In this document: one piece after another, positions 3,364 through 63,903 of the stretch | How positions within the stretch are numbered: position 1 is the stretch's first letter | Layout: each line of letters starts with the position of its first letter | IMG/VR virus record: IMGVR_UViG_3300036398_002581 | Location: 5,570-69,569 of that record | Direction: 5' to 3' (one strand) | Length of the DNA: 64,000 nucleotides | DNA from: a virus | Notes under the pieces: model-generated | Told to the model about the DNA's origin: nothing | What the model saw: only the letters and a program-made list of their open reading frames with translations | Database searches by the model: none | Program-made: the position numbers and the translations under genes

Positions 3364-3747
3364 ATGACGAAAGAAGGCTTCAAGATCGACAAGAAGAAGC
3401 GAATGTCGAAGAAGGCGGTCTGCGCCTACTTCGGCGATCGCGGGATGCCGGTATCGCCCGCAGAGGTGGCTTTCCACGCGGTCGGCACGTTCACAAGCAG
3501 GAAGTGGGATCACGAGCACGGCGGTCGCTTCACCAACGAGCTGGAGACCATCCCGGCCCTGGCCGTGATCATCAAGGAACGGCCGGCTGGCATCTGCGAC
3601 TGGGGCGACACCGACGAGGGCCGCATGGATGTCTACTCGCTCAGAGACATTTACGGCGAGTGCCAGGACGATGTCCCCGCCCCGAAGTACGCTATCGCCG
3701 CGGCGAAGCGGGCAGCCCGGCCGGCGAAACGAAAGGCAGCCCGATGA
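3364..3747 (+). CDS. hypothetical protein
   Basis: GAGGA RBS and ACGATG. Confidence 0.6.
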   Translation: MTKEGFKIDKKKRMSKKAVCAYFGDRGMPVSPAEVAFHAVGTFTSRKWDHEHGGRFTNELETIPALAVIIKERPAGICDWGDTDEGRMDVYSLRDIYGECQDDVPAPKYAIAAAKRAARPAKRKAAR

Positions 3748-3932
3748 TCACCTACGGCCCGATCCCAGGCGAGATTCGGCGTGAGTGGCTACAGCTCATG
3801 TTCGACAACATGCGAATGCACCGCGAGCTGCGGCAACGCAAGCGTAGGAGCGCCGGCCTCCCCGCCGGCAATCTGGTCACCGGATCGTTCCGGCGGCCCG
3901 TCCGAGGAAACAACAGGAACCCCCGATCATGA
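3744..3932 (+). CDS. hypothetical protein
   Basis: ATGA overlap with the upstream gene. Confidence 0.5.
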   Translation: MITYGPIPGEIRREWLQLMFDNMRMHRELRQRKRRSAGLPAGNLVTGSFRRPVRGNNRNPRS

Positions 3933-4105
3933 AAAACCGAGTGACCCCCTACGAGGCCGGCTGGCTGACATTTCTGGTCAGCAGCGGCATCGCCAGCGAG
4001 GCTGCCTGCCGCGCCGCGATGAATCGCGTGGCCCAGGACGCCCTCGACGAGATCAACCGCCTGCGGGAAAAGAAGCGGGCTAGCAAAAAACGCAAGGATC
4101 AATAG
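3929..4105 (+). CDS. small hypothetical protein (58 aa, MKNRVTPYEAGW...)
   Basis: ATGA-coupled ORF below the track's size cut-off. Confidence 0.5.
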   Translation: MKNRVTPYEAGWLTFLVSSGIASEAACRAAMNRVAQDALDEINRLREKKRASKKRKDQ

Positions 4106-4165
4106 GCTACTGGTCGATAGTTAATAGGCTACGAAACGATACTTCACTTCAAAAGGAGACTCAAC

Positions 4166-4471
4166 ATGAGTCACGCAGTAGGCGATAGGGTCTGGAGCGC
4201 ATGGGTGTCGACGAGGAACATCGACGCGATTGAGTCGATGGTGACTTCGGTCGTCGTCGTGGCGGTGATCGAGGAGCGGCCCCTGTTCCGCCTGTATGGC
4301 GGCGGGGTCCGCGAGAAGTACGAGTTTGAGACGATCTGCCTGACCGAGGCGGATGCCTGGGCTCACTGTGCCCAGGAGATCGCCGCAGTACGCGATCGCG
4401 TCGTGGCCTCCGCCGAAAACGCCATCGCCAAGGCGGCGTCGTTCCGCGTCGGGGAGGCTGTGCCCGTATGA
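4166..4471 (+). CDS. hypothetical protein
   Basis: AAGGAG RBS. Confidence 0.65.
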   Translation: MSHAVGDRVWSAWVSTRNIDAIESMVTSVVVVAVIEERPLFRLYGGGVREKYEFETICLTEADAWAHCAQEIAAVRDRVVASAENAIAKAASFRVGEAVPV

Positions 4472-4606
4472 CTCCCCCCCGACCGTGGAAATGGGTCATG
4501 GATGACCTCGTCCGCACGCTCGTGCTGATCCGACTCGGGCAACTGCTCGGGTCGGACAGCACGGCGGCGAGGGCCGTCCACGATCTCGTCGAATCCCTGT
4601 TTAGCA

Positions 4607-4636
4607 TTGTCCGATGATTGTCCTGGCGTATAGAAT
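4607..4636 (+). promoter_or_regulatory. putative sigma70-type promoter TTGTCC-18-TAGAAT
   Basis: Consensus similarity upstream of 4674. Confidence 0.4.
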
Positions 4637-4673
4637 GTCACCCCTACCCGAATGTGGAAACGAGAGGAAAACG

Positions 4674-5063
4674 ATGAAATATGTTCTGAGCGACATTGCC
4701 GGCGAAAACTTCCGGCTGGCCGATGGAATGTGGACCGACGAGGTTGACCTTGCCGAGCGGTTCTCATTCGACGCCGCCCAGGTGCGGATCGAGGAGCTGG
4801 CAGCCGAGGGCGTTCACGCCAAGGCTGTCGAGACGCATGGCAGGAAGCGGAAGACCTCCGAGTCGATCGTCAATCGCGTCACGAAGTCACTGGACAAGCT
4901 CGAGCGCCAGTGGGAGGGCAAGACGATCGGCATCGGCTACGAGGTCGATGTCGAGGTAGGCCAGATCATCCTGACCCTCGAGCCGGACGGCGAGCCCGAG
5001 CTTTCCCTGAACATCAGCGTGGACATCTCCGGCGTGTTCGTCGGAGTAGGAGACGAAAACTAA
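4674..5063 (+). CDS. hypothetical protein
   Basis: GTGGAAACGAGAGGAAAACGATG leader. Confidence 0.65.
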   Translation: MKYVLSDIAGENFRLADGMWTDEVDLAERFSFDAAQVRIEELAAEGVHAKAVETHGRKRKTSESIVNRVTKSLDKLERQWEGKTIGIGYEVDVEVGQIILTLEPDGEPELSLNISVDISGVFVGVGDEN

Positions 5064-5356
5064 TGAAACCCATTGATATCAGCGAGTACCTGACGATCCA
5101 GCAGGCTATGGACGAGCTAGGCTGCCCGCGGAGGACACTCTCCAGGGCCGTTCAGCGGGCCGAGGCCGCCGGCAAAAAGATCGTCGTCGAAATCCTGGGC
5201 AAGCCGGCGATCCACAAGTCGAAGATCGCCGTGCTCAAGGAGTACTACTACCCCTACGGCTCAGCCGCTCACCAGAAGATGGTGAAGAAGTGGGGGGCGT
5301 CGGGCGGCACGCAGAAGCGAGTGAACCGCGAGAAGGCCGAGCGGGGTCGCCTTTAA
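5063..5356 (+). CDS. helix-turn-helix DNA-binding protein
   Basis: YLTIQQAMDELGCPRRTLSRAV, an HTH_17/excisionase-like pattern. Confidence 0.65.
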   Translation: MKPIDISEYLTIQQAMDELGCPRRTLSRAVQRAEAAGKKIVVEILGKPAIHKSKIAVLKEYYYPYGSAAHQKMVKKWGASGGTQKRVNREKAERGRL

Positions 5357-5640
5357 CAAGAGTCGCGGGCGGTCCTCTTACTATGGCATGCCTTGCATAA
5401 GGTTCTCAGATTCCCCATCGACTCATCGCCGCCCTTCGCCTTCTCGACGATATGGTCGATGTCGGGGGAGCCGACCACCAGCAGCCCGCACAACTGGCAG
5501 ATGCCCTGGTCGCGGGCGATGACGGCCAACCGGGTGCGCCGCCACGAGGCAGAGCAGTATCCGCGGGACGCCGCCGTCGGGCGGGCCTCCCCCCGTGGGG
5601 AGAAACGAGGCGGTCTAAACGTCGGGATTCTTTTGGGCAC
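5353..5640 (-). CDS. HNH endonuclease, HK97 gp74-like (terminase-associated)
   Basis: RGY..W...R..V.ARD..CQLC, DHI...GG...NLRTLCKACH. Confidence 0.9.
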   Translation of the reverse strand: MPKRIPTFRPPRFSPRGEARPTAASRGYCSASWRRTRLAVIARDQGICQLCGLLVVGSPDIDHIVEKAKGGDESMGNLRTLCKACHSKRTARDSC

Positions 5641-16851: not shown

Positions 16852-17108
16852 TAACCAAGCCTCACATACAGCGGGCCGTTCTCGCCGACGTAGGCTCCGA
16901 GCGTGTTGAACTCGAGGAACTCGTCGGCCTCTTCGTGCGTCATCCCGTCGCGGTCAACGAGAGCCTGAACGCACTTGTCGTAGTCGTAGACGGCGACGAC
17001 GGCGTGATGATGATTCGCCGTGTAGCCGATGAACGCCGACTCGAGGCCGTCGGCCAGGAGCGCTTCGGGGTTGATCTCTGTAAGCTCTTCAAGTCGTTCG
17101 GCGCTCAT
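16851..17108 (-). CDS. conserved phage hypothetical protein
   Basis: LLADGL..AFIG...VAVYD..K...GM..EEA.EF.EFN. Confidence 0.7.
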   Translation of the reverse strand: MSAERLEELTEINPEALLADGLESAFIGYTANHHHAVVAVYDYDKCVQALVDRDGMTHEEADEFLEFNTLGAYVGENGPLYVRLG

Positions 17109-17839
17109 TCTCCGGTTACCTCCTTGATCCACTCCCGATACAAACTCACCCGCGTGTGCGCCGTCTCCTCGCCCTGGCGGCTCTTCAGCGGCCCCCTCGG
17201 GGCCATCGTGAAGCTGTTGACCCCGGCCAGCTTGCCTCCGGCGAAAAGCGGGCCTCCTGAGTCCCCAGGCGAGATGCAGAACTCGAGCGTGCTCGTCCCA
17301 CACTGAGCGTGGCAGACGATGACCGACCGCTCGAACCGCTCGATCGTCTGCGTCCCCGCACGCAGCTTGCCGTCGTAACCCTCGTGGCCCGCAGTCAGCT
17401 TCCCGTAGAGTCCGTAGCCGACGATGCTGACCGTCTGCCCGACCTTCTCGTCGCCGTCGCTAAGTGGTGGGTAGTAGGCAATGCCAGCGGGCTTGTCACA
17501 GTGCAGCAGGGCCAGATCGTGAAATCCGTTCTTGTCGTCGTCCCAGTCCGGGTGGATGACAACTCGGTCAACCAGACGGTTCGACAGCGTGATCCCGCTG
17601 ACTCCGACTGCAACGTGCGCCGCCGTGATCGCCCAGTGCGGGGACAACAGAGTTGCCGTCGCCTCCGAGTATTTGCCGTCATCGTCGCGGCCGGAGAAGC
17701 GAACTGCGTAATCGCGGAATCGAGAACCGTACTCGATGTACCTCGCGTCCGGCACGGCGTCGTCGGTCGTGCCTGCCATCGCGGCGGGAACGCCCAGCAG
17801 GAAGGCGGCGAGAGCTTTGTCTTCGATGGGTGGGGTCAT
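17105..17839 (-). CDS. trypsin-like (S1) serine protease
   Basis: ITAAHV, DLALL, GDSGGPL catalytic triad. Confidence 0.9.
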   Translation of the reverse strand: MTPPIEDKALAAFLLGVPAAMAGTTDDAVPDARYIEYGSRFRDYAVRFSGRDDDGKYSEATATLLSPHWAITAAHVAVGVSGITLSNRLVDRVVIHPDWDDDKNGFHDLALLHCDKPAGIAYYPPLSDGDEKVGQTVSIVGYGLYGKLTAGHEGYDGKLRAGTQTIERFERSVIVCHAQCGTSTLEFCISPGDSGGPLFAGGKLAGVNSFTMAPRGPLKSRQGEETAHTRVSLYREWIKEVTGE

Positions 17840-17937
17840 TGTTTTACAATCCTGAATTCTGAACACCCGCACTTCGGGCACGGGCCATTCGACTGCTTCG
17901 GCTCGTTGCAGCGGTTGCAGAGGCGGGTCGAAGTCAT
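17836..17937 (-). CDS. small zinc-ribbon peptide (33 aa, CNRC...CPKC)
   Basis: ATGA-coupled at both ends. Confidence 0.45.
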   Translation of the reverse strand: MTSTRLCNRCNEPKQSNGPCPKCGCSEFRIVKQ

Positions 17938-18311
17938 CTCTCAACTCCAGCGACCGTTGTTCCTCGCAACTGACAGCCACCTGCGCTGATCACCAAAACC
18001 AACTCGCGCTCGTCGCTGAAGTATTCGCCCATCAGCCCAGCAATAGTCGCTTTCGCCGCAGGCCACGCGACACGCAGAAAGTTAGCAAGGAACTCCCTGT
18101 CGATGGCCGCGGCCCATGCTTTCCCGTCTTCGGAGATGACGTATTCCAAATAAGAAAACGCAGACGAGAAGTTGCGTCCGCTCTCATCCTCAAGGTCGGC
18201 GAAAACGACGACTTCGCTGCGAAAGTAAACGGCGTCCAGCAAAAGCATCAAGTCGACGTGCCTTCGCAGAAAGTCTTCGCGATCCTGAAAGGTGTTCATC
18301 GACCCTGTCAT
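17934..18311 (-). CDS. hypothetical protein
   Basis: Coupled ORF, lower GC. Confidence 0.55.
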   Translation of the reverse strand: MTGSMNTFQDREDFLRRHVDLMLLLDAVYFRSEVVVFADLEDESGRNFSSAFSYLEYVISEDGKAWAAAIDREFLANFLRVAWPAAKATIAGLMGEYFSDERELVLVISAGGCQLRGTTVAGVER

Positions 18312-54173: not shown

Positions 54174-54365
54174 TTACCGCCTCTTCTTCGGTGTGTGCTT
54201 CACGGCCACTTCAGCCCGCTCAATGGTCTCGGGAACCAACTCGGCAGTCTCGGCCTCCTCGATCAGCCCGCGGCGGATGAGGATGTCGCACATGCCAGCG
54301 GCCCAGTCCTCGAAGACTTGGCCTTTCTCGTAGCAGTCGAAGTTCTGGAGGATGCGAATCTTCAA
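54174..54365 (-). CDS. small hypothetical head-module protein
   Basis: TTG start; LIRRGLIE. Confidence 0.5.
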   Translation of the reverse strand: MKIRILQNFDCYEKGQVFEDWAAGMCDILIRRGLIEEAETAELVPETIERAEVAVKHTPKKRR

Positions 54366-55090
54366 TTGACCTGCCCCCAGGCGTTTTCCGGTGCCTTCTG
54401 GCCGTTCGTCCAATACTCGGTCGTGTGCTGCTGCACCTTGCCGCCATCGGCGCTCCTTGAGGGCCACGTCACCATCAACTCGGCGTGCCCGACGCTGACG
54501 TGCGTAGCCAGCCCCAGCGTGTTTCCACAGGCCGCCCAGGACTTCCAAAAGGCGATGTCTTCGTCGGTATGCCCGCCGTTCCACTCGCCCTGGTCATTCG
54601 CACGAGCGATGAACCAGGGCTTCTTCATCTTCTTCAGGGCGGCGGTTCGCAGGAACGTCAGCCCGAAGTGTGCCGTCTCGACCGGCTGCACCACCTTGCC
54701 AAAGAATTCGCCGTCGACCGTCGTCCTCTCGTCAGCGTCGCTTCCTGCCAGGGCGAACATCACGGCGTTCGCCTCCCGCTTCGTCTGGAGCGGCGCGATT
54801 GCGTCGAAACCAGAGTGCATCAGCAGCGTCAGCAACGCCTCGACCGTCTTCGCGTTGAAGACCGTGTCGTAGTCGACGGTCAGGATCACGTCGTGTGAGT
54901 CGATGACCTGTTCCATCGCTCGCTGAAGGCACTGGCCCCAGAAAGCACCCGTCACCTTGATGGGACTGATGCCATGCGGGGCCAGTGCCGACGAGACGCA
55001 GAAAAAGTTGTCGGTGAATCCCAGTCGCGGGGTCGACATGACCGCCGCGACTTTGATTTCCGCTTCGACGTTGCCTACTCGCATCAGCAT
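54362..55090 (-). CDS. GT-A-fold glycosyltransferase-like protein
   Basis: ILTVDYDTVF (DxD), HFGLTFLR, KKPWF, DEDIAFW, VGH. Confidence 0.7.
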   Translation of the reverse strand: MLMRVGNVEAEIKVAAVMSTPRLGFTDNFFCVSSALAPHGISPIKVTGAFWGQCLQRAMEQVIDSHDVILTVDYDTVFNAKTVEALLTLLMHSGFDAIAPLQTKREANAVMFALAGSDADERTTVDGEFFGKVVQPVETAHFGLTFLRTAALKKMKKPWFIARANDQGEWNGGHTDEDIAFWKSWAACGNTLGLATHVSVGHAELMVTWPSRSADGGKVQQHTTEYWTNGQKAPENAWGQVN

Positions 55091-55630: not shown

Positions 55631-56983
55631 TCACGACGCCGCGGACTTGAGAGCAACCACGGGGCCGGCGGTCGTGTTGTCGCCGAGCGAGTGATGAACC
55701 ACGTCGAACCGCATCGTGCCTTGGAGCAAGAGCTGATCGGTCGTGGCGTAGACTTGGTCGTACATCCGCACTGCGAAGTCGCGGCGACGAGCGTAGATGC
55801 TGGACAGACCCAGGTTCGCGAAGAGAACCTTGACCTTGCCCGGATCGGCACCGAGCGTGCCGTCGAGGACGTGAACGTAGTTCACAGGAAATCCCATGAA
55901 CTGCTCGGTCACGCCACCGCCGACCTGCTCGACGGTGTTGCCACCGGCCGCGTAGCGGAGGCGGGCCATCGAGGCAGCAAAGCCGGCCGGCGAGATGTAC
56001 CACGCTGCACCCTGGCGGGCGTAGAGAGGCATCTTGCCGATGACCTTGATGAAGTCGGTCACGGTCAGGGTCTCGAAGCCCGTGGCACCAGCACCGGCAG
56101 TCACGACGCCCGCGTTGTGCGTGCCGTCATTGACCTTCGGCACCACGCCGTAGATTCCGCCCGAAGCAGAGTCGCCCGCGCCGAGCCAGCCGACCAAGTC
56201 GGTCTTGTAGGCCAAGCTCGTCGCGAACTCCGTAGCCACGGCATCAGCGATCGACACAAGAGCGTCTTCCACCACCTCGCTCGACATGCGGGTTCCCACG
56301 GCCAATTTCTTGGCAATGAGCTGCACGTTCGAGTAGGTCGGCTCGCTCTCGCTCACCGCGGTGCCTTCGCCGACGAAGTAGGCCGTGGTGCCCGTGACAC
56401 GCTTCGGGATGATCATCGTGTCGCGGGTCATCGTCACCTTCTCGACATTGCTCGCTGCGAAGGTGCCGAAATTTTCCACCAACCTGATCACGCGAGAAGC
56501 GAACTCCTCTGGGACGAGAGCACCGCCAGAAGCGTTGCTGTTCTCGCCCATCGCGCGGTTCTCGACGCCGTGATCCTTGCACCACCGGAGGTCTTCGGCG
56601 TTCTTGAAGATGTGAGCCCGGAGCCACCTGCCGCAGCGGTAGGCACTCTCGACAGCCTCGGGGCCGTCGTTGAATGCACGCAGGCTGGTGTGGTGAGGCT
56701 GGATCGAACGAATCTCGACCTTCTTCTCCTCGACCTTCGCGGCGACTTCAGCAGCCGGAGCCGGGGCAGGGGCGGCCTTCTCGACCACGGCCCGCAGTTC
56801 GGCTTCCTTCGCGGCGATCCGCTCCTCGAAGTCCAGGGAGGTCTTCAGGTCGTCGGCCTGAGTGCCGAGCGAGATGAGTTCCTTGGTCTGCTCGGCCGAG
56901 CGATCCTCGATACCGGACAGTTCGGTCATCCGAGCGGCGACAGCCGCTGCACGTTCCTGAAGACGCTTGAGATTCGACGCCAT
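55631..56983 (-). CDS. major capsid protein, HK97 fold with N-terminal delta domain
   Basis: GGALVPEEF; A.FVGEG; SSEVVED; MRFD. Confidence 0.95.
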   Translation of the reverse strand: MASNLKRLQERAAAVAARMTELSGIEDRSAEQTKELISLGTQADDLKTSLDFEERIAAKEAELRAVVEKAAPAPAPAAEVAAKVEEKKVEIRSIQPHHTSLRAFNDGPEAVESAYRCGRWLRAHIFKNAEDLRWCKDHGVENRAMGENSNASGGALVPEEFASRVIRLVENFGTFAASNVEKVTMTRDTMIIPKRVTGTTAYFVGEGTAVSESEPTYSNVQLIAKKLAVGTRMSSEVVEDALVSIADAVATEFATSLAYKTDLVGWLGAGDSASGGIYGVVPKVNDGTHNAGVVTAGAGATGFETLTVTDFIKVIGKMPLYARQGAAWYISPAGFAASMARLRYAAGGNTVEQVGGGVTEQFMGFPVNYVHVLDGTLGADPGKVKVLFANLGLSSIYARRRDFAVRMYDQVYATTDQLLLQGTMRFDVVHHSLGDNTTAGPVVALKSAAS

Positions 56984-57128
56984 TTTGGCCTGCTCCTTGG
57001 TTTGAGCCGGCCAAACGCACAATCGCGGCGGCCGGCGGGTGATCCCGCTAGCGCGCCGCGTGCTTGAATCCTCAAGTCGCTCGCACTGCCCCTCACGACA
57101 TCCGTCGTGAGGCAATGTCTCTCTATGT

Positions 57129-57158
57129 AGCCTAGCGACCTTGACTTGCGCCGTGCAA
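57129..57158 (-). promoter_or_regulatory. putative promoter TTGCAC-18-TAGGCT for the capsid gene
   Basis: Consensus similarity; implies a ~140-nt structured 5' UTR. Confidence 0.45.
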
Positions 57159-58802
57159 CTGAGTCCGAAGAATTGTCGCCTTCAGGTTCGCGAGCTTGAC
57201 GGCGATGTCGATGTTCTCCTGCTCCGCACGCATGTCCTCGGCGGGCTTGTCATCAACCGGCTCCGGCTTCTTCTCTTCTGCGCTCATACGTTCCTCGGGG
57301 ATGATCCACAGCTTGCACACGGCGTCGGCCGCAATTTCTCCACTCACGATGTAGCATCTGCCTTCCTCGGACTCGAAGAAGACGCAGTTGCTGCACTTCA
57401 ATCCGTCATTTGCGAACGGGTTCTCGGTCATGTAGTGAGCGTCATCCGGGCTCCAGGGACCGTACTCCTCGGCGATGCCCTCGTAGCACTCCGCAAGCGC
57501 GAGGTTCACCGCCGACAGCGTGTCCGCATACTCACCTTCGACGCCGTCTTCGCCGATGTCACGTTTGCCGCTCGCCCGCTCGATCTGCGAGACCTTGGCC
57601 TCACTCCACCGCCACGCTGGATCGCCGCCCCACAGCATCCAGGCGGTGTACCCTGGCGTTTCCTCGCCCTTATTCGACCAGCCGGGTCTCTTGTCGACCT
57701 TGTGGCGTCGGAACCACGCTCGCATCTCGCGAACGTGCTCGGGCGTCAGTTCTTCGCGTGCGGCGATCTTGCCGGCACGGGCCACCGTCTCAGGCTTCAG
57801 CCCGTCGCCCGATCGGCCCTCCTCGTGCAGGGCCAGACCGCGCTTCGCGGCGGCTGCCATGCCCGCGGTGGGCTTCAGATTTACGTCGGAGGCGGCGCGG
57901 GTCTCATCTGAGGCAGCCTCGGGGGTGGTTTCAGCAGAAGAGTCCACCGACGGGGCTGCCTCCGCGGGCGCGGAAGCAGCACGCCGATCCACCCACTTCT
58001 CGCCAGCGTCGCCGCCGGCCAGTTGCCACTCGATCCAGGCTGGCGAGCCTGACCAGCCCGTCACTTTCGCCGCCAAACACCGCTCGTAGACGCCGGAGAG
58101 GTACGAAACCTCCTCGACACTGACGATTTCGCGGTTCGCGACTCGTTCGGCGATGCAAAGAAGGCGAGAATCGATGCTTTCGTGCCTCTGGGCCAGCTTC
58201 AGGCCGCGCTTCGACGCATTCGCCATCGTCTGGATGGGCCGGAATGACTCACCCAGGGCCATTTCGATGGCTCGACGGCTCACAACCACGCTGGAAGAGT
58301 CGTATGCGGGCCGAACCACGGGCCCAACGTCCTCGAGCAGCCCGATCGCACGCACCTCACGCCTGCGAAGACCACGCTGACTGTCCGTCGACCACGAATC
58401 ACCGCCTTCTCGCTTGATCGCGAAGGCGAAACTGGACCCGACAACCGTCCGATCCTTCACCCATTCGACCACGTCGCGGCCGATGGAGGTGTTTTCGTTC
58501 GGCGTGATCTCGTAGCGAAGCCCATACGGGTCTTTCTTGAGTCGCATAGTACCATTTCCGGTACGTCCGAGCAGCAGGTTGCGGTCGTGATTGAACACGC
58601 CGATGACATCGGGGTTCTCGGCGAGCACTTCGTCGAACGCATTCGGGTGAATCGTCTCGATGAAGCCACCCAGGTTGCGGCTTTCGGCGTTAAAAACGGC
58701 GGCGTAGCCCGAAATCACGGGCTTTTTTTCGCCGTTACCCATGTCTCGGTACTCGATCGTCGCGTCCGAAACCGTCGTGCGCCGCTCAATCTCGTTGCTC
58801 AT
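57132..58802 (-). CDS. HK97-family prohead protease fused to two repeated domains and a HiPIP-like 4-Cys domain
   Basis: ISGYAAVFN, FNHD, SSFAF, V..PAY; W.L.GGD repeats; CSNC...C...C. Confidence 0.88.
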   Translation of the reverse strand: MSNEIERRTTVSDATIEYRDMGNGEKKPVISGYAAVFNAESRNLGGFIETIHPNAFDEVLAENPDVIGVFNHDRNLLLGRTGNGTMRLKKDPYGLRYEITPNENTSIGRDVVEWVKDRTVVGSSFAFAIKREGGDSWSTDSQRGLRRREVRAIGLLEDVGPVVRPAYDSSSVVVSRRAIEMALGESFRPIQTMANASKRGLKLAQRHESIDSRLLCIAERVANREIVSVEEVSYLSGVYERCLAAKVTGWSGSPAWIEWQLAGGDAGEKWVDRRAASAPAEAAPSVDSSAETTPEAASDETRAASDVNLKPTAGMAAAAKRGLALHEEGRSGDGLKPETVARAGKIAAREELTPEHVREMRAWFRRHKVDKRPGWSNKGEETPGYTAWMLWGGDPAWRWSEAKVSQIERASGKRDIGEDGVEGEYADTLSAVNLALAECYEGIAEEYGPWSPDDAHYMTENPFANDGLKCSNCVFFESEEGRCYIVSGEIAADAVCKLWIIPEERMSAEEKKPEPVDDKPAEDMRAEQENIDIAVKLANLKATILRTQLHGASQGR

Positions 58803-59272
58803 GCCGTCACCTGATTCGCGAGGTAGTTGTCCAGACCGATCTGTTCGATAACACGCTGTTTTGCCTCGATCGCCGCCACCGCTTCTTCGCTGCCTTCGAG
58901 CAACTGAGTGAAGATGACGGCAGAAATCTCGTCGCCGACGGCGCGGCAGGCCGCCACGTTGGCTCGCTCGACCTCCGCGGCGGCGGTTTCAAGCGAGAGG
59001 TTGGCTGCGAGGATGCCCTCGTAGTCGTGCCTGGGCCAATCGGGCTGGTCGTGGTCGTAGGTCGGCTGAACGTCGTAGTATTCGAGCCGCGCCTGAACCT
59101 CATGCAGATGCCGGCGTTCCTCTTCGGCCTCGCCGCGACTCGTGTCGGCAAGTTTGCCGTAGCCCCAGCGGTCGAAGTGCTCGGCCAGCGACTGATAGTG
59201 TTCAATCGCGGTCATGTGCAGCCGAACGGAGGCTTGCAGGGCGTCGATCACGCCTTCAGGTGCTTGTGGCAT
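58799..59272 (-). CDS. bacterioferritin-like protein
   Basis: AIEHY, WGY.KL, EEERRH, LETAA, IEQIGLDNYLANQ align colinearly with Bfr. Confidence 0.85.
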   Translation of the reverse strand: MPQAPEGVIDALQASVRLHMTAIEHYQSLAEHFDRWGYGKLADTSRGEAEEERRHLHEVQARLEYYDVQPTYDHDQPDWPRHDYEGILAANLSLETAAAEVERANVAACRAVGDEISAVIFTQLLEGSEEAVAAIEAKQRVIEQIGLDNYLANQVTA

Positions 59273-60899
59273 CGCTCGTCAGGTGCTTGTCGCACCAGTC
59301 CTCGGTTACTGATTCGTACTTCTGGCCGCTGCGATGGCACTCGAGCAGGAGTTCTCGCGAGCGACTCATCCACGAGCCCACGAACTTGTCGATGTCTCTT
59401 CCGGTAGCCTGTGCGGACTCGCGAAGCTCTTCACGCATCCGGCCGGTCATCTGATCAAGCCACGCAGCAAGCTTCTCGGGCTTATTGCGTCGCTCAAGGA
59501 CGCCGTCAGCCTCGATGGCGGCGAGTCGCCGGAGAGAAGTCTTGAAGACAACTTCGGCTCCTGCGATCTGGCGGGCGTCGGGGGCGTCTTCTCTGTCGGG
59601 GGCATCGCCAACCGTCGGTTCCGGCGGCCCGTCAACGCTGCCCTGGGGAGCGGGAGTCTGCGGCTTCTGGCCGGTTGGGTTCTCAAGCGTGAACGCCTCC
59701 AGCAGTTGCATGTTCACCTGAATGAACCGCTTCTTTCCGACGCCGTCGGGGAGCGGGTTGTAGCCGATCTGCGCGCGAATCTCGTCGATGTCGAGAGCGC
59801 CGAGGTTCGCCATCTCACGAATGAACTGCGACCGCGCGGCGTAGTCGCCGGCCATCAGCGAGTTCAAGTCGAACTGACAGAAATACTGCTTGTCGTCGAC
59901 CACGAGGTCTCGCCGACACGCCATCTCCCACCGCCGGCACCAGGGAAGCAGCGAGAACGTGACGAAGTCGATCGCCTGCTGCTCGACGGTACTGTGCCGA
60001 ACATCCGACAAGTCGCCGATCAAATACTGAGGCACACGATAGCAGCGTGCCACTTCAGCCAACTGAAAGCGTCTGGTCTCGACGAGCTGAGACGTGTCGT
60101 TCCTGACTTCGACCTGCTTGCGGTGAAAGCCGAACGGCATGATGACGGTTTTGTATGCCTTGTCCGGCCCTTGATGGGCGTCAATCCACTGGTCTTTGAA
60201 CCGGGCGAGCACCTCGGGTTTGTGAGGCTGGTCGGTTTCGATGTAGGTTCCGACCTGCGCGCCGTGCCCGAAGAAGCTGCCGGAGTGCAGTTCCGTCGCT
60301 CGCGCCAGGCCGATCGCGTCTCGCGACAGGGTCGTTGGCAAGTAGCCTGTCACCCCGTCGGATGAGAGCCAGCGAAGATGAAAAATCTCGTCCTGCCGAT
60401 ATTCCGTCGGGTCAGGCGTCGGCTGGATCAGGCTGGTGGACTCTCGGTAGTAGTATCTCAGCTTGCCGTTGGTGAGCCGCTTGACCTCCATCCGCGATGG
60501 ATGGAGCGGAATCAGCTCGGTGACCGCGCCGTTCTTGCCGCCCTTGATGTAGGCGTAGGCGTTGCCCCAGAGCAAAAGCCAGCTTTGCATGAGTTCCCTG
60601 AACTCAAAGCCGGTCATCCACGAGTTCGGCTGATAGGCGATCACCTCGTGCAGGTGCTGCTCCTCGGCAATCTCCTTGCCGCCACCGGGAAGTCGCCGGT
60701 ATACGTTGAACGGCAGGCTGGCGATCGACTCGGATAGCACGCGGACGCAGGCGAGAACGGCCGTGCATTCCAGAGCAGTTTCAGGCGAGACGGAGATGCC
60801 CGACGCAGTGCGACGGGTGCTCGAAATCTCCTCGAAAATGCGGGAGAGGTTACCGCGAAGCTCGATCAGATCGGAGACTTCTTCGTCGACTCTGTCCAC
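59256..60899 (-). CDS. HK97-family portal protein
   Basis: VLACVRVLSESIASLP; PNSWMT; GNAY; VPQYLIG. Confidence 0.95.
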   Translation of the reverse strand: MDRVDEEVSDLIELRGNLSRIFEEISSTRRTASGISVSPETALECTAVLACVRVLSESIASLPFNVYRRLPGGGKEIAEEQHLHEVIAYQPNSWMTGFEFRELMQSWLLLWGNAYAYIKGGKNGAVTELIPLHPSRMEVKRLTNGKLRYYYRESTSLIQPTPDPTEYRQDEIFHLRWLSSDGVTGYLPTTLSRDAIGLARATELHSGSFFGHGAQVGTYIETDQPHKPEVLARFKDQWIDAHQGPDKAYKTVIMPFGFHRKQVEVRNDTSQLVETRRFQLAEVARCYRVPQYLIGDLSDVRHSTVEQQAIDFVTFSLLPWCRRWEMACRRDLVVDDKQYFCQFDLNSLMAGDYAARSQFIREMANLGALDIDEIRAQIGYNPLPDGVGKKRFIQVNMQLLEAFTLENPTGQKPQTPAPQGSVDGPPEPTVGDAPDREDAPDARQIAGAEVVFKTSLRRLAAIEADGVLERRNKPEKLAAWLDQMTGRMREELRESAQATGRDIDKFVGSWMSRSRELLLECHRSGQKYESVTEDWCDKHLTSDATST

Positions 60900-60900
60900 G

Positions 60901-62403
60901 CTACAGCACCATGAGGGTTGGTTCGTCGGTATTGCCGTGGGTCTCGCTCGAGGCAATGCCCAAGGCCATGATCAGAGAAACTGCCCCGTCGATGCGGGCC
61001 GTGGAGTGACTGTTTTTCTTGGTCGGCTTGATGTTCCCGGCGTCGTCTACCTTCACCTGCACGTTCGACATCTGCCACGCCAGGACGGGGTTGCCGCCGT
61101 GACGCAGGCGTTTTCCAACGCAGAGTGTCTCAAGCAGCTTCGACGGCGCTGACATGCTGGCAAAACCTTGTCCAAAAGGCTTTACGTCGATGCCCTCGGC
61201 CGTCAACTGGGTCGTCAGATGCACTGCATTCCAGCGGTCGATCGCAATACTCCGAACCGCATTCTTCTCGCAAAACGAGAGAATGTAGTCGCGGACTACG
61301 TCGTAGTCTGTAATGTCTCCATCAGTAAGCTTAACAAATCCAGCGTCCGCCCAGGCTTGATACGGCACTCTGTCCTCGCGACCCCGCTTGATCGCGTTCT
61401 CCTCTGGGATGAAGAACATCGCGTGGATGTCATACGTCCCGTCGGCGTCCGGCCAGACCGCCACGAACGCCGTCGTGTCGAATGTGCTGGCGAGGTCGAC
61501 GCCACACCAGCATGGCCGCCCTGCCGTCGGCCTGAGAGGCTCGTTGTTGGCGTCCCAGGCACCGTGCCTGATCCACTTGGTTTCCGACTTCTGGAACTGG
61601 TTCAAATGTAGGGTTCTGAAAACGACTTCGTCGGTCGGGGACTGCTTCGCCTTCTCGGCAAATTGCTTGAAATAGTCGGGTTTTAGCGTGATTCCGTAGT
61701 TCGGATTCGCCTTCTTCCACGTCTCCTCGATGAACGGGTCGTCCTCGGGATCGGCGGCGTAGATGCAGGGTAGGAAGGTGTCGTCCTTCAGGACGCCGTC
61801 GCGAATCTTGATCGCCCGCTGCCAGTCCTTGTAACACGGGCCGTCCATGTCGGTGCCGGCCGTCGTGATGTAGATGGTCAGCGGTTGGCTCCTGGCACCA
61901 GTGCCCGTCTCGAGTACGTCGACCAACTCGCGGTCGGGAAAGACGTGATATTCATCGACCAATACGCAACTCGGGTTATAACCGTGCTTGGTCCCGGCCT
62001 CGCTCGATATGCAGATCATCGTCGAGTTCTTCTCGGGGAAGACGATGCTGTTGCGATATATCTTGCACCGCTTCGTCAGCGACGGGCAGCTTTCGACGAA
62101 CTGCTTCGCTGCGGTATGGAGCAGCGCCGCCTGAGAGCGGTCGCCGGCCGCGACGATTACTTCGGCCCCCTCGTCGTCGCAGCAGAGCATGTAGAGGCCG
62201 ATGGCAGCCGATAGGGCCGATTTCCCATTCTTGCGGGGCAACGCGAGCAAACTCGTCCGATACTGCCGCAGACCGTCGGGCTTCTTCGTGTTGAAGAGCT
62301 TGTCGAGGTACTCGTCCTGCCATCGCTCGAGGACGAAAGGCTTCCCTGCAAAGTCGCCGCGACTGTGCTTCAGTAAGCCGATGAATTGACGTATGTCAAC
62401 CAC
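60901..62403 (-). CDS. terL: terminase large subunit
   Basis: PRKNGKS, VDEYH, GVDLA, IDGAVS. Confidence 0.95.
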   Translation of the reverse strand: MVDIRQFIGLLKHSRGDFAGKPFVLERWQDEYLDKLFNTKKPDGLRQYRTSLLALPRKNGKSALSAAIGLYMLCCDDEGAEVIVAAGDRSQAALLHTAAKQFVESCPSLTKRCKIYRNSIVFPEKNSTMICISSEAGTKHGYNPSCVLVDEYHVFPDRELVDVLETGTGARSQPLTIYITTAGTDMDGPCYKDWQRAIKIRDGVLKDDTFLPCIYAADPEDDPFIEETWKKANPNYGITLKPDYFKQFAEKAKQSPTDEVVFRTLHLNQFQKSETKWIRHGAWDANNEPLRPTAGRPCWCGVDLASTFDTTAFVAVWPDADGTYDIHAMFFIPEENAIKRGREDRVPYQAWADAGFVKLTDGDITDYDVVRDYILSFCEKNAVRSIAIDRWNAVHLTTQLTAEGIDVKPFGQGFASMSAPSKLLETLCVGKRLRHGGNPVLAWQMSNVQVKVDDAGNIKPTKKNSHSTARIDGAVSLIMALGIASSETHGNTDEPTLMVL

Positions 62404-62880: not shown

Positions 62881-63903
62881 CTACGAGTATTGCACAGTAG
62901 GCAATGGCCCCGCAAAGGAGTCGGATTTCTTTATGTTGCACGCCCAGCAGGCGGCCTGGACGTTACTCGGTCTGTGGCCTGGGCCGTCGGGACCGTAAGA
63001 CAGCGGCACGATGTGATCGATCGTGGGGCTGCGGGGATGCGGAGTCTCGCTGCCATCGATCTTTGTCCACCGCGGAAGCAGCTCGCACTGGCATATCTGG
63101 CACGTCCAGTTGTCCCGGCGAAGGATCGACGTTTTCGAGAACGACTCGTAGTGGCACCCGTACTTAACGCATCGAAACTTGTGGCCGCCAGCGTTGCCGC
63201 CGACATTCAGCGGGTCGCCTGCGTCATTGCCCCAGGTTCCGAACCACACAGCGATCTGCTCGTCAAGCGTTGCCCCCGGCCGCCTTGTCAGTCTCGCGCA
63301 TGGGAGGCGAAGCCGCCTCGCCTCAAATGCGCATTCCCTGGAGCAGTATTTTCCGGCATTTCGCCCGGTTCCTCGTTTTCGGAACGGCTTCTGGCAACAG
63401 AGGCACTGCCGCTGCGCAGCACGGCTCTTGTTTCTTTTGATCGTCTCGGGTGCCCTCGCCAGCGCGACACAGCTCTGGCTGCAAAACTTGCTCCCAGAGT
63501 GCCTCTGCTTGAAGCTTTTTCCGCACTGCTGGCAAGGCTTAACGCATGGGCGGTTGGGGTATCGGCACTCGTCGCTACAGTATTTTGAGTTCTTAAACCG
63601 AACGAAGCCCTCACCGCATCTCAGGCATGTCCCGTGATGCGTCGGCTTCTTTGTCTTTCGCAGCTTGCGGCACTGATCGGAGCAGACTTCCCGGCGTCTG
63701 CCGACACTACTTGCGTCCTGCGGTACGTCTTTGCCGCAGACAGAGCACGGCACGACCGCGGGCTTCGGCGACCGCGACGAAGCTCGGCAGCAGGCCGCAG
63801 AGCAATACGTCCTGGGCTTAGGGCCAAGGGAGGGCGGCACAGAACCGCCGCATACGGGACAACTTTGGCCTTCCTTGGCGTTTTCTCCGGCGTCTCCACG
63901 CAC
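62881..63903 (-). CDS. HNH endonuclease with multiple CxxC...(Y/F)CS..C zinc-finger repeats
   Basis: Five Cys repeats; RDNWTCQIC, DHIVPLS, NVQAAC..CN. Confidence 0.85.
   Translation of the reverse strand: MRGDAGENAKEGQSCPVCGGSVPPSLGPKPRTYCSAACCRASSRSPKPAVVPCSVCGKDVPQDASSVGRRREVCSDQCRKLRKTKKPTHHGTCLRCGEGFVRFKNSKYCSDECRYPNRPCVKPCQQCGKSFKQRHSGSKFCSQSCVALARAPETIKRNKSRAAQRQCLCCQKPFRKRGTGRNAGKYCSRECAFEARRLRLPCARLTRRPGATLDEQIAVWFGTWGNDAGDPLNVGGNAGGHKFRCVKYGCHYESFSKTSILRRDNWTCQICQCELLPRWTKIDGSETPHPRSPTIDHIVPLSYGPDGPGHRPSNVQAACWACNIKKSDSFAGPLPTVQYS

Follow-up and report, generated by a model that had tools for sequence, protein, structure and literature searches.

The ferritin-like gene and its place in the head operon

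The stretch of DNA analysed here (the window) comprises 64,000 nucleotides (nt) of the IMG/VR virus record IMGVR_UViG_3300036398_002581, positions 5,570 to 69,569, and represents most of a source record of 69,569 bp that is rated 100% complete. The record encodes an integrase, a UvrD helicase, a primase-polymerase and a SNF2 helicase in addition to head genes, and from this set of functions we take it to be a temperate tailed phage. Between the portal and prohead protease genes of its head block lies a small open reading frame (ORF) whose predicted product resembles bacterioferritin (Bfr), and the protease itself carries a C-terminal domain resembling high-potential iron-sulfur proteins (HiPIPs). 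The features of the head block considered here, all on the minus strand, are the following:

58799..59272, minus strand: ferritin-like (Bfr-fold) gene, 157 amino acids (aa), recognised by Pfam, alignment to PDB entries and an AlphaFold2 model
59256..60956, minus strand: portal protein gene (PF04860, 1.7e-88)
57132..58802, minus strand: prohead protease gene, 556 aa, with the S78 domain at residues 20-180 (PF04586, 3.3e-37; TIGR01543)
57249..57491, minus strand: HiPIP-like Cys4 domain, protease residues 438-518, with a Pfam HIPIP match at 57306-57422
55631..57115, minus strand: HK97-type major capsid gene (PF05065, match at residues 197-472)
60901..62403, minus strand: large terminase (TerL) gene, at the upstream end of the head block

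The ferritin-like gene overlaps both of its neighbours. Its ATG (59270-59272) and the portal stop codon (59256-59258) define a 17-nt overlap of the two genes, and the ATGA at 58799-58802 is common to its own TGA and the ATG of the protease, a 4-nt overlap. An earlier note on this stretch had described a 157-aa ORF spanning the portal stop and the protease start as a degenerate bacterioferritin that aligns colinearly with E. coli Bfr, and had called for a profile and structure search for the ferritin fold. The overlaps and the colinearity were both confirmed: the ORF aligned without gaps to E. coli Bfr 1bcf_A (residues 8-155 against 7-154, E 7.1e-8), and the best PDB match was another solved Bfr, 5zur_A, again gapless (residues 8-156 against 7-155, E 1.2e-14). 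The search likewise recovered the fold, Pfam Ferritin PF00210 matching residues 9-140 with an E-value of 1.4e-12 (48.2 bits, cut-off 24.5). The AlphaFold2 model, built from an alignment of 33 sequences, reached a mean predicted confidence (pLDDT) of 94.2 and contained helices at residues 8-36, 39-65, 84-111 and 115-145 followed by a short fifth helix at 147-152; superposed on Bfr chains, it gave TM scores of 0.91-0.95 and root-mean-square deviations of 1.1-1.8 A over approximately 155 columns. The similarity of the predicted structure to the Bfr fold is thus far above chance.

The protein is nonetheless set apart from ordinary bacterioferritins. The NCBIfam Bfr equivalog TIGR00754 scored 65.4 bits and did not reach its cut-off of 125.55, the identity of the phage family to ordinary planctomycete Bfrs was 23-33%, and in the tree a long, fully supported branch separated the two. 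No PHROGs family was found for the ferritin-like protein. Family members are 153-164 aa long, and the colinearity of residues 8-156 of 157 leaves no extension past the Bfr fold that could be used as a cargo-targeting peptide. By sequence comparison, the ORF product belongs to a clade of its own, borne mostly by phages, within the bacterioferritin branch of the ferritin-like superfamily.

Conserved remodelling of the metal and haem sites

Three of the six di-iron ferroxidase ligands of Bfr (E18, E51, H54, E94, E127 and H130) are kept in the phage protein, and H19, S128 and A/S131 replace the others, the query position being the Bfr position plus one in the gapless alignment. Relative to A. vinelandii Bfr 1sof_A, the retained residues are E51 (E52 in the query), H54 (H55) and E94 (E95), and the altered ones are E18 to H19, M52 to R53, E127 to S128 and H130 to A131, which reproduces every kept and changed residue that had been listed by eye in the earlier note. 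The label "degenerate" given there did not survive, since the ligand changes are fixed throughout the family. In the set formed by the query and 120 metagenome homologues (60-92% identity), H19, Y26, E52, H55, E95 and S128 were present in 121/121 sequences, R53 in 119/121 and E129 in 118/121, and position 131 was always Ser or Ala. The 53 unique viral alleles, which span 48-100% identity, showed the same site pattern, with E or D at position 95 and with R53 and E129 each in 52/53; residues R62, E64, D67, R81-H82-D83, E102, D114 and N149 were invariant in them too, and the reading frame was intact in all 53. The surface motif W79-P-R-H-D83 was invariant in the family, and the E-helix motif G146-L-D-N-Y-L151 was conserved, an indirect hint only toward a 24-subunit cage.

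The same signature was recovered on a wider scale. A HMMER scan of 1.84 billion cluster representatives yielded 32 matches at E <= 1e-30. Among the 35 best full-length representatives of 50%-identity clusters (109-228 bits), His19 was found in 35/35 and Ser or Thr at position 128 in 33/35. The family signature was present in 38 of the 70 cluster representatives among the matches listed, which corresponds to about 35-40 of the 50%-identity clusters. The closest sequences beyond the family show the pattern E-E-R/L-H-E-T-H, whose Thr127 is shared with 5zur. The median pairwise ratio of nonsynonymous to synonymous substitution rates (dN/dS) was 0.28 for the ferritin-like gene, 0.19 for the portal, 0.23 for the protease and 0.26 for the capsid gene, values that were computed by NG86 at high dS and are meaningful as a comparison between genes only. 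Judged from these alignments, the altered ligands were replaced once and then fixed, and the site is remodelled and conserved rather than decayed.

The nearest experimental parallel to such a site is a subunit from A. baumannii. In the passages of PMC11303784 drawn on here, natural bacterioferritins are described as heteropolymers of ferroxidase-active and ferroxidase-less subunits; an A. baumannii Bfr subunit carrying His18 and His54 forms a homopolymer without Fe2+ oxidation, and an AlphaFold 3 prediction places a single bound iron in it. By analogy, the phage protein most likely neither runs a ferroxidase cycle nor binds haem; the bis-Met haem site in particular is most likely lost, since Arg stands at the position of Met52. 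A single metal ion, most likely iron, is probably held at H19/E52/H55 with the aid of E95 or E129, and Bfr-like dimers or cages are probably still formed. The passages of the same paper locate the docking of bacterioferritin-associated ferredoxin (Bfd) on Bfr at L68, P69, N70 and Q72 of one subunit and at L78, I79, G80 and E81 of the other. The family's W79-P80-R81-H82 coincides with the second half of this docking site, and a conserved partner surface is therefore plausible.

Synteny and loss among related phages

A survey of gene order in related phages, proposed in the earlier note, supported the recurrence of the arrangement but not its constancy. The order portal, ferritin-like gene, protease was found in 50 of the 52 IMG/VR loci retrieved through the ferritin, usually with the capsid gene next, the exceptions being loci L026 and L051. 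A portal profile detected 466 IMG/VR relatives, and presence and absence were counted in the best 80 of these: the ferritin-like gene was present in 41, absent in 35 and unjudgeable in 4. In the 35 non-carriers the portal was followed directly by the protease, with a gap of -21 to +48 nt. Mapped onto the portal tree, ferritin presence required at least 6 state changes, 5 of them forced by well-supported branches.

Recent loss could be seen at nucleotide resolution. Two contigs (L124 and L120) were 95-97% identical in DNA to carrier L036 on both flanks and lacked 437 bp. Through this deletion the six opening codons of the ferritin gene run in frame into the protease gene, where ACG stands in place of the protease's ATG. 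Similar absences at lower identity were observed in L112 relative to L114 and in L107 relative to L005. From the clean loss in the two contigs, it follows that the gene is dispensable for the needs of those phages. Ferritin alleles also appear uncoupled from their portal neighbours, as portals 81-86% identical to that of the window go with ferritins that are either 89-94% or only 54-55% identical (the latter in L099, L101, L104, L105, L109 and L110). This pattern of identities indicates that ferritin alleles are exchanged among related phages.

Family members outside head operons and in cellular genomes

In both exceptions to the head order, the ferritin-like gene has other neighbours. It adjoins a tyrosine-recombinase-like ORF in L026 and lies between a UvrD-like helicase and a methylase-like ORF in L051, the recombinase and methylase labels being read from N-terminal sequences and not from Pfam. 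A divergent, P0143-like branch added six further viral loci (L163-L168) with no head genes nearby: a weak Pfam integrase match lies next to the ferritin in L163 and L165, and a UvrD helicase in L167 and L168, whereas the scanned ferritin neighbours in L164 and L166 matched no family. The helicase of L168 (710-3217, plus strand) contains an intein splicing domain (PF14890, 36.1 bits, cut-off 35.8). Scans with the single proteins P0140, P0137 and P0145 gave no relatives in IMG/VR. In G305, a 93.9-kb phage that is 96% complete, a ferritin 45% identical to that of the window is located approximately 65 kb from a portal gene whose product is 40% identical to the window's.

Cellular copies were sought with a pattern-based scan of limited sensitivity, using one genome per species across 185,579 species. 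Seven loci were obtained, namely two short phage-like contigs from Actinomycetota bins, two ordinary Bfrs, and three contigs from planctomycete metagenome-assembled genomes (MAGs). The three planctomycete contigs (L056-L058) showed sulfatase-like and GntR-like neighbours, labelled from N-terminal sequences, and no phage genes. The family copy was the sole PF00210 match in each of the three MAGs, which may be incomplete, and all three copies kept every family invariant, W-P-R-H-D included. Because the cellular copies keep this motif too, a partner bound there need not be a capsid protein. Two of them (L056:1656-2195 and L057:7884-8468) have an optional in-frame N-terminal extension of 24-39 residues that is hydrophobic, similar in both and resembles a signal peptide; no phage copy has one. 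Among 301 sampled genomes of the carrier's phylum, a family-level match (248 bits) was found in the centre genome only, and a further 36/301 genomes contained ordinary Bfrs at 49-79 bits.

No family member was found in 50,697 GenBank phage records; two of them (one a named phage) matched, through an annotated bfr that is 29% identical. The best trees placed the cellular copies within the phage clade, beside L026 (support 80-87), and a topology in which the phage sequences are monophyletic and the cellular copies lie outside was not rejected by the approximately unbiased (AU) test (p 0.49). The gene is thus a cassette that phages may carry or lack, exchange and relocate, and its conserved features are kept away from the head context as well.

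A HiPIP-like domain on head proteins

The prohead protease of the window has a 376-aa extension after its S78 domain, and near the end of this extension lies a putative iron-sulfur domain with the cysteine motif C-x2-C-x9-C-x12-C, from which other alleles differ by a few residues. The broader pattern C-x2-C-x5-14-C-x9-18-C was present in 43 of 72 complete proteases, and the four cysteines formed invariant columns in an alignment of 35 domain sequences. Pfam HIPIP (PF01355) matched exactly on the motif, covering positions 22-65 of its 66-position model, at 16 bits (cut-off 22, E 1e-3); this was the only match of the family in the record and lies below the cut-off. When a profile of the domain was compared with the PDB, the four best matches were all HiPIPs: 3h31 (1.4e-4), 1hpi (0.014), PioC (6xyv; 0.082) and 1isu (0.3), and all four cysteines were aligned in the 3h31, 1hpi and PioC alignments. 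The AlphaFold2 model of the domain had a pLDDT of 49.5, too low for a fold search.

The remainder of the extension was less informative. A Pfam scan of the whole protease at E-values up to 10 returned the S78 domain only, and a phmmer search of the PDB with the 100-residue C-terminal piece gave no match. An Atlas search with residues 185-437 gave only leads below 0.9, to viral hypothetical proteins. The 593 GenBank phage records matching the protease covered none of it beyond the N-terminal part, so none shows the extension. Protease length varies by approximately 200 aa, being about 760 aa in L004, L005, L012, L115 and L116 and 556 aa in the window; in the longer proteins the HiPIP-like motif lies at about residue 675 instead of about 470, and the middle segment, of no assigned family, is inserted or duplicated. 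The middle region of the window's protease contains two similar K-R-G-L-x-L stretches. The L008 protease (3622-5283) loses its reading frame after 280 aa, with the HiPIP-like domain carried on in a different frame, owing either to a frameshift or to a fault in the assembly.

This domain was also found on a different head protein of the distant phage G305, where it scored 94.7 bits and was 51% identical to residues 436-506 of the protease:

L170:2141-5608, plus strand: portal-HiPIP-like fusion, a 1155-aa ORF of phage G305, with the domain at approximately residues 481-549

Since the domain sits on the protease in the window and on the portal in G305, it is a mobile module of two different head proteins. 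Across the 72 proteases, ferritin and the HiPIP-like domain were both present in 36 cases, ferritin only in 12, the domain only in 7 and neither in 17, L008 being counted as ferritin only despite its domain in the shifted frame. Ferritin carriers without the domain in the fetched locus included L019, L038-L040, L043, L044, L048, L111 and L114, and the domain occurred without ferritin in L107 and L124. Paired comparisons on the tree yielded 5 independent pairs and a sign test p of ~1, that is, no signal of co-variation. Complex prediction for two ferritins, a 4Fe-4S cluster and a HiPIP-like partner gave 0.02 and 0.00 against a mark of 0.32, values that speak neither for nor against binding.

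Other genes in the window

Further observations concern genes apart from the two main subjects. The capsid protein has an N-terminal extension of approximately 190 residues ahead of its Pfam match. The head block also contains a 242-aa ORF (54362-55090, minus strand) between a 141-aa ORF of no family and a head-tail connector gene; it weakly resembles family-2 glycosyltransferases (PF13632, 21.8 bits where the cut-off is 27) and is a second non-structural-looking gene there. Upstream of an ORF that overlaps the TerL start lies a 340-aa ORF (62881-63903, minus strand) that ends in an HNH endonuclease domain and whose long N-terminal part is full of repeated C-x2-C pairs. A trypsin-like serine protease gene (17105-17980, minus strand; PF00089, 6.2e-17) is located in the early/middle region, apart from the head protease. 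No tRNA gene was found in the window, and no Fer2_BFD (Bfd) match in the phage record.

Possible functions of the ferritin-like protein

We tentatively favour, at a probability of roughly 45%, the explanation that the gene encodes an accessory and autonomous metal-binding protein of the ferritin-like type, lacking both ferroxidase centre and haem, that is co-expressed with the late head genes. Being joined to the late head operon by overlapping stop and start codons, the accessory gene would probably be translated with the portal and protease late in infection. Heads would be built without its product, which would act alone in the infected cell to bind or buffer metal, and a possible role would be to supply iron to, or to protect, the iron-sulfur-like domain attached to the head proteins of these phages. 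Several observations weigh against this explanation. Codon overlaps with portal and protease in an otherwise uninterrupted block are a classic signature of a virion or prohead component, and the gene order is kept even where portal and ferritin are down to 55% and 50% identity, respectively. The deepest family branches in the best trees are copies in head context; the three cellular copies count as one event, because they form one tight clade, and could be a phage remnant. The raw counts of ferritin and HiPIP-like domain are suggestive of a link, and G305 has both, at different places. Finally, the proposed cellular role is a guess, because simple iron storage is unlikely without a ferroxidase centre.

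The alternative closest to the earlier note's encapsulin comparison, in which the HK97-fold prohead takes up the ferritin-like protein as cargo that remains in the capsid or acts from within it, is in our view unlikely, yet it draws on several of the same facts: the codon-overlap coupling between portal and protease, the order kept in 50/52 loci, the invariant W79-P-R-H patch on the Bfd docking site that makes a partner-binding surface plausible, and the HiPIP-like domain carried by the protease here and by a C-terminal extension of the portal in G305. The C-terminal side of the portal faces the capsid interior and the prohead protease is enclosed in the prohead, so the domain would be inside the capsid; other phages are known to have internal head proteins that are optional and variable, such as the internal proteins of T4. 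In one variant the protein may act with the protease- or portal-borne domain as an optional internal iron/redox module, and the fuller claim that temperate phages build such a module, a Bfr-like protein lacking haem and ferroxidase centre plus a tethered HiPIP-like [4Fe-4S] domain, inside an HK97-fold capsid seems to us quite improbable. Encapsulin cargo bears a targeting peptide, and the phage protein ends with the Bfr fold. Phages nearly identical to a carrier (L124 and L120 relative to L036) manage without the gene, non-head and cellular copies keep every invariant including the surface patch, the 5 independent pairs show no co-variation with the HiPIP-like domain, and the domain stays after ferritin loss (L107, L124). 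The earlier note's preference for a head-associated protein over an ordinary auxiliary metabolic gene is supported in part, by the predicted fold and the recurrent order, and is weakened by the optional presence, the non-head and cellular copies and the missing targeting extension. Its suggestion of a scaffold fares worse. Position inside the head block is all that speaks for an essential scaffold or structural assembly protein, which we consider very improbable: 35 of the 76 judgeable portal-found relatives lack the gene, its clean loss from contigs that match a carrier at 95-97% identity contradicts such a role unless these contigs are defective phages, and the capsid protein already has its own N-terminal extension.

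A third explanation would be an action on the host. The subunit would join host Bfr or Ftn cages, as a poison or in the manner of an L-chain, or would decoy a host Bfd-type ferredoxin, and host iron storage or release would be redirected during infection. The dominant-negative idea of the earlier note has a real precedent in heteropolymeric bacterioferritins, as the passages of PMC11303784 describe them, the ferroxidase-less A. baumannii subunit also having His18, with no direct support here; the occurrence of 54-55% and 89-94% identical ferritins beside similar portals has the look of cassette exchange expected of a host-matched factor. We nevertheless regard this explanation as distinctly improbable, as any Bfr-like match was found in only 37/301 sampled genomes of the phylum of the one cellular carrier, the sole PF00210 match in the three carrier MAGs leaves no partner subunit there, and the phage encodes no Bfd. 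That the gene is a decaying, functionless remnant of a captured host bfr, as the loss of three of six ferroxidase ligands and of the haem Met might suggest, is hardly credible given replacements that are invariant across 121 + 53 sequences, a dN/dS of 0.28 on a par with the neighbouring head genes, and an intact frame in every unique viral allele. The accessory metal-binding protein remains the explanation that we prefer.

Significance and comparison with known systems

Viral bfr genes as such are already known. The literature searches found no description of a Bfr-like gene between portal and protease, nor of a portal or prohead protease bearing a HiPIP or 4Fe-4S domain, and together with the PHROGs and GenBank phage searches they make the family, its head-operon slot and the HiPIP-like head-protein domain appear undescribed. 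Until now, viral genes of the ferritin family have been interpreted as borrowed genes for iron storage, and here a separate, mostly phage-borne clade is found; with the catalytic centre and haem site apparently replaced once and then held fixed, the protein would have a new job and would not be a copy of the host's. The conservative reading still offers a natural Bfr scaffold with a predicted 2-His/carboxylate site for metalloprotein work, and the near-identical phage contigs with and without the gene are natural pairs suited to functional tests.

The bfr genes reported from viruses as auxiliary metabolic genes under purifying selection (PMC10904782; preprint 10.64898/2026.05.02.722434) resemble the present one in being Bfr-family genes on viral genomes with purifying selection. 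The passages of those sources describe them as host-derived iron storage and do not state ligand loss or a head-operon position, on which their supplements may say more. With bacterioferritins proper (TIGR00754; PDB 5zur, 1sof and 1bcf; Pa BfrB), the phage protein shares length, colinearity, the four-helix bundle plus E helix, residues E51, H54, E94 and Y25 and the C-terminal G-L-x-N-Y-L motif, and it differs in the fixed changes E18H, E127S, H130S/A and M52R and in being borne mostly by phages. The ferroxidase-less A. baumannii subunit, as described in the passages of PMC11303784, is similar in its His18, its retained H54 and its lack of a competent di-iron centre. It differs in keeping the bis-Met haem and Bfd-docking residues, where the phage protein has Arg in place of Met52 and the patch W-P-R-H, and in having a Ftn-type partner, whereas the phage has no partner gene, with one PF00210 match in the 69.6-kb record.

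The HiPIP-like domain resembles HiPIPs (3h31, 1hpi, 1isu and PioC 6xyv) in that its four cluster cysteines, and the aromatic residues beside them, line up with theirs. HiPIPs are soluble electron carriers, in contrast to the candidate domain, which is fused to a prohead protease or portal and whose cluster binding is putative. The head-operon home of the ferritin-like gene and this domain together raise the question of whether iron or iron-sulfur chemistry takes place inside some phage capsids, which bears on the origin of encapsulins from phage capsids. The likeness to encapsulin systems is that of an HK97-fold shell gene near a ferritin-superfamily gene; an encapsulin shell does without portal, protease or DNA, and the phage protein, unlike encapsulin cargo, has no targeting extension. 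If the internal-module reading were true, phages of this kind would be living intermediates, standing between phage heads that package DNA and encapsulins that load ferritin.

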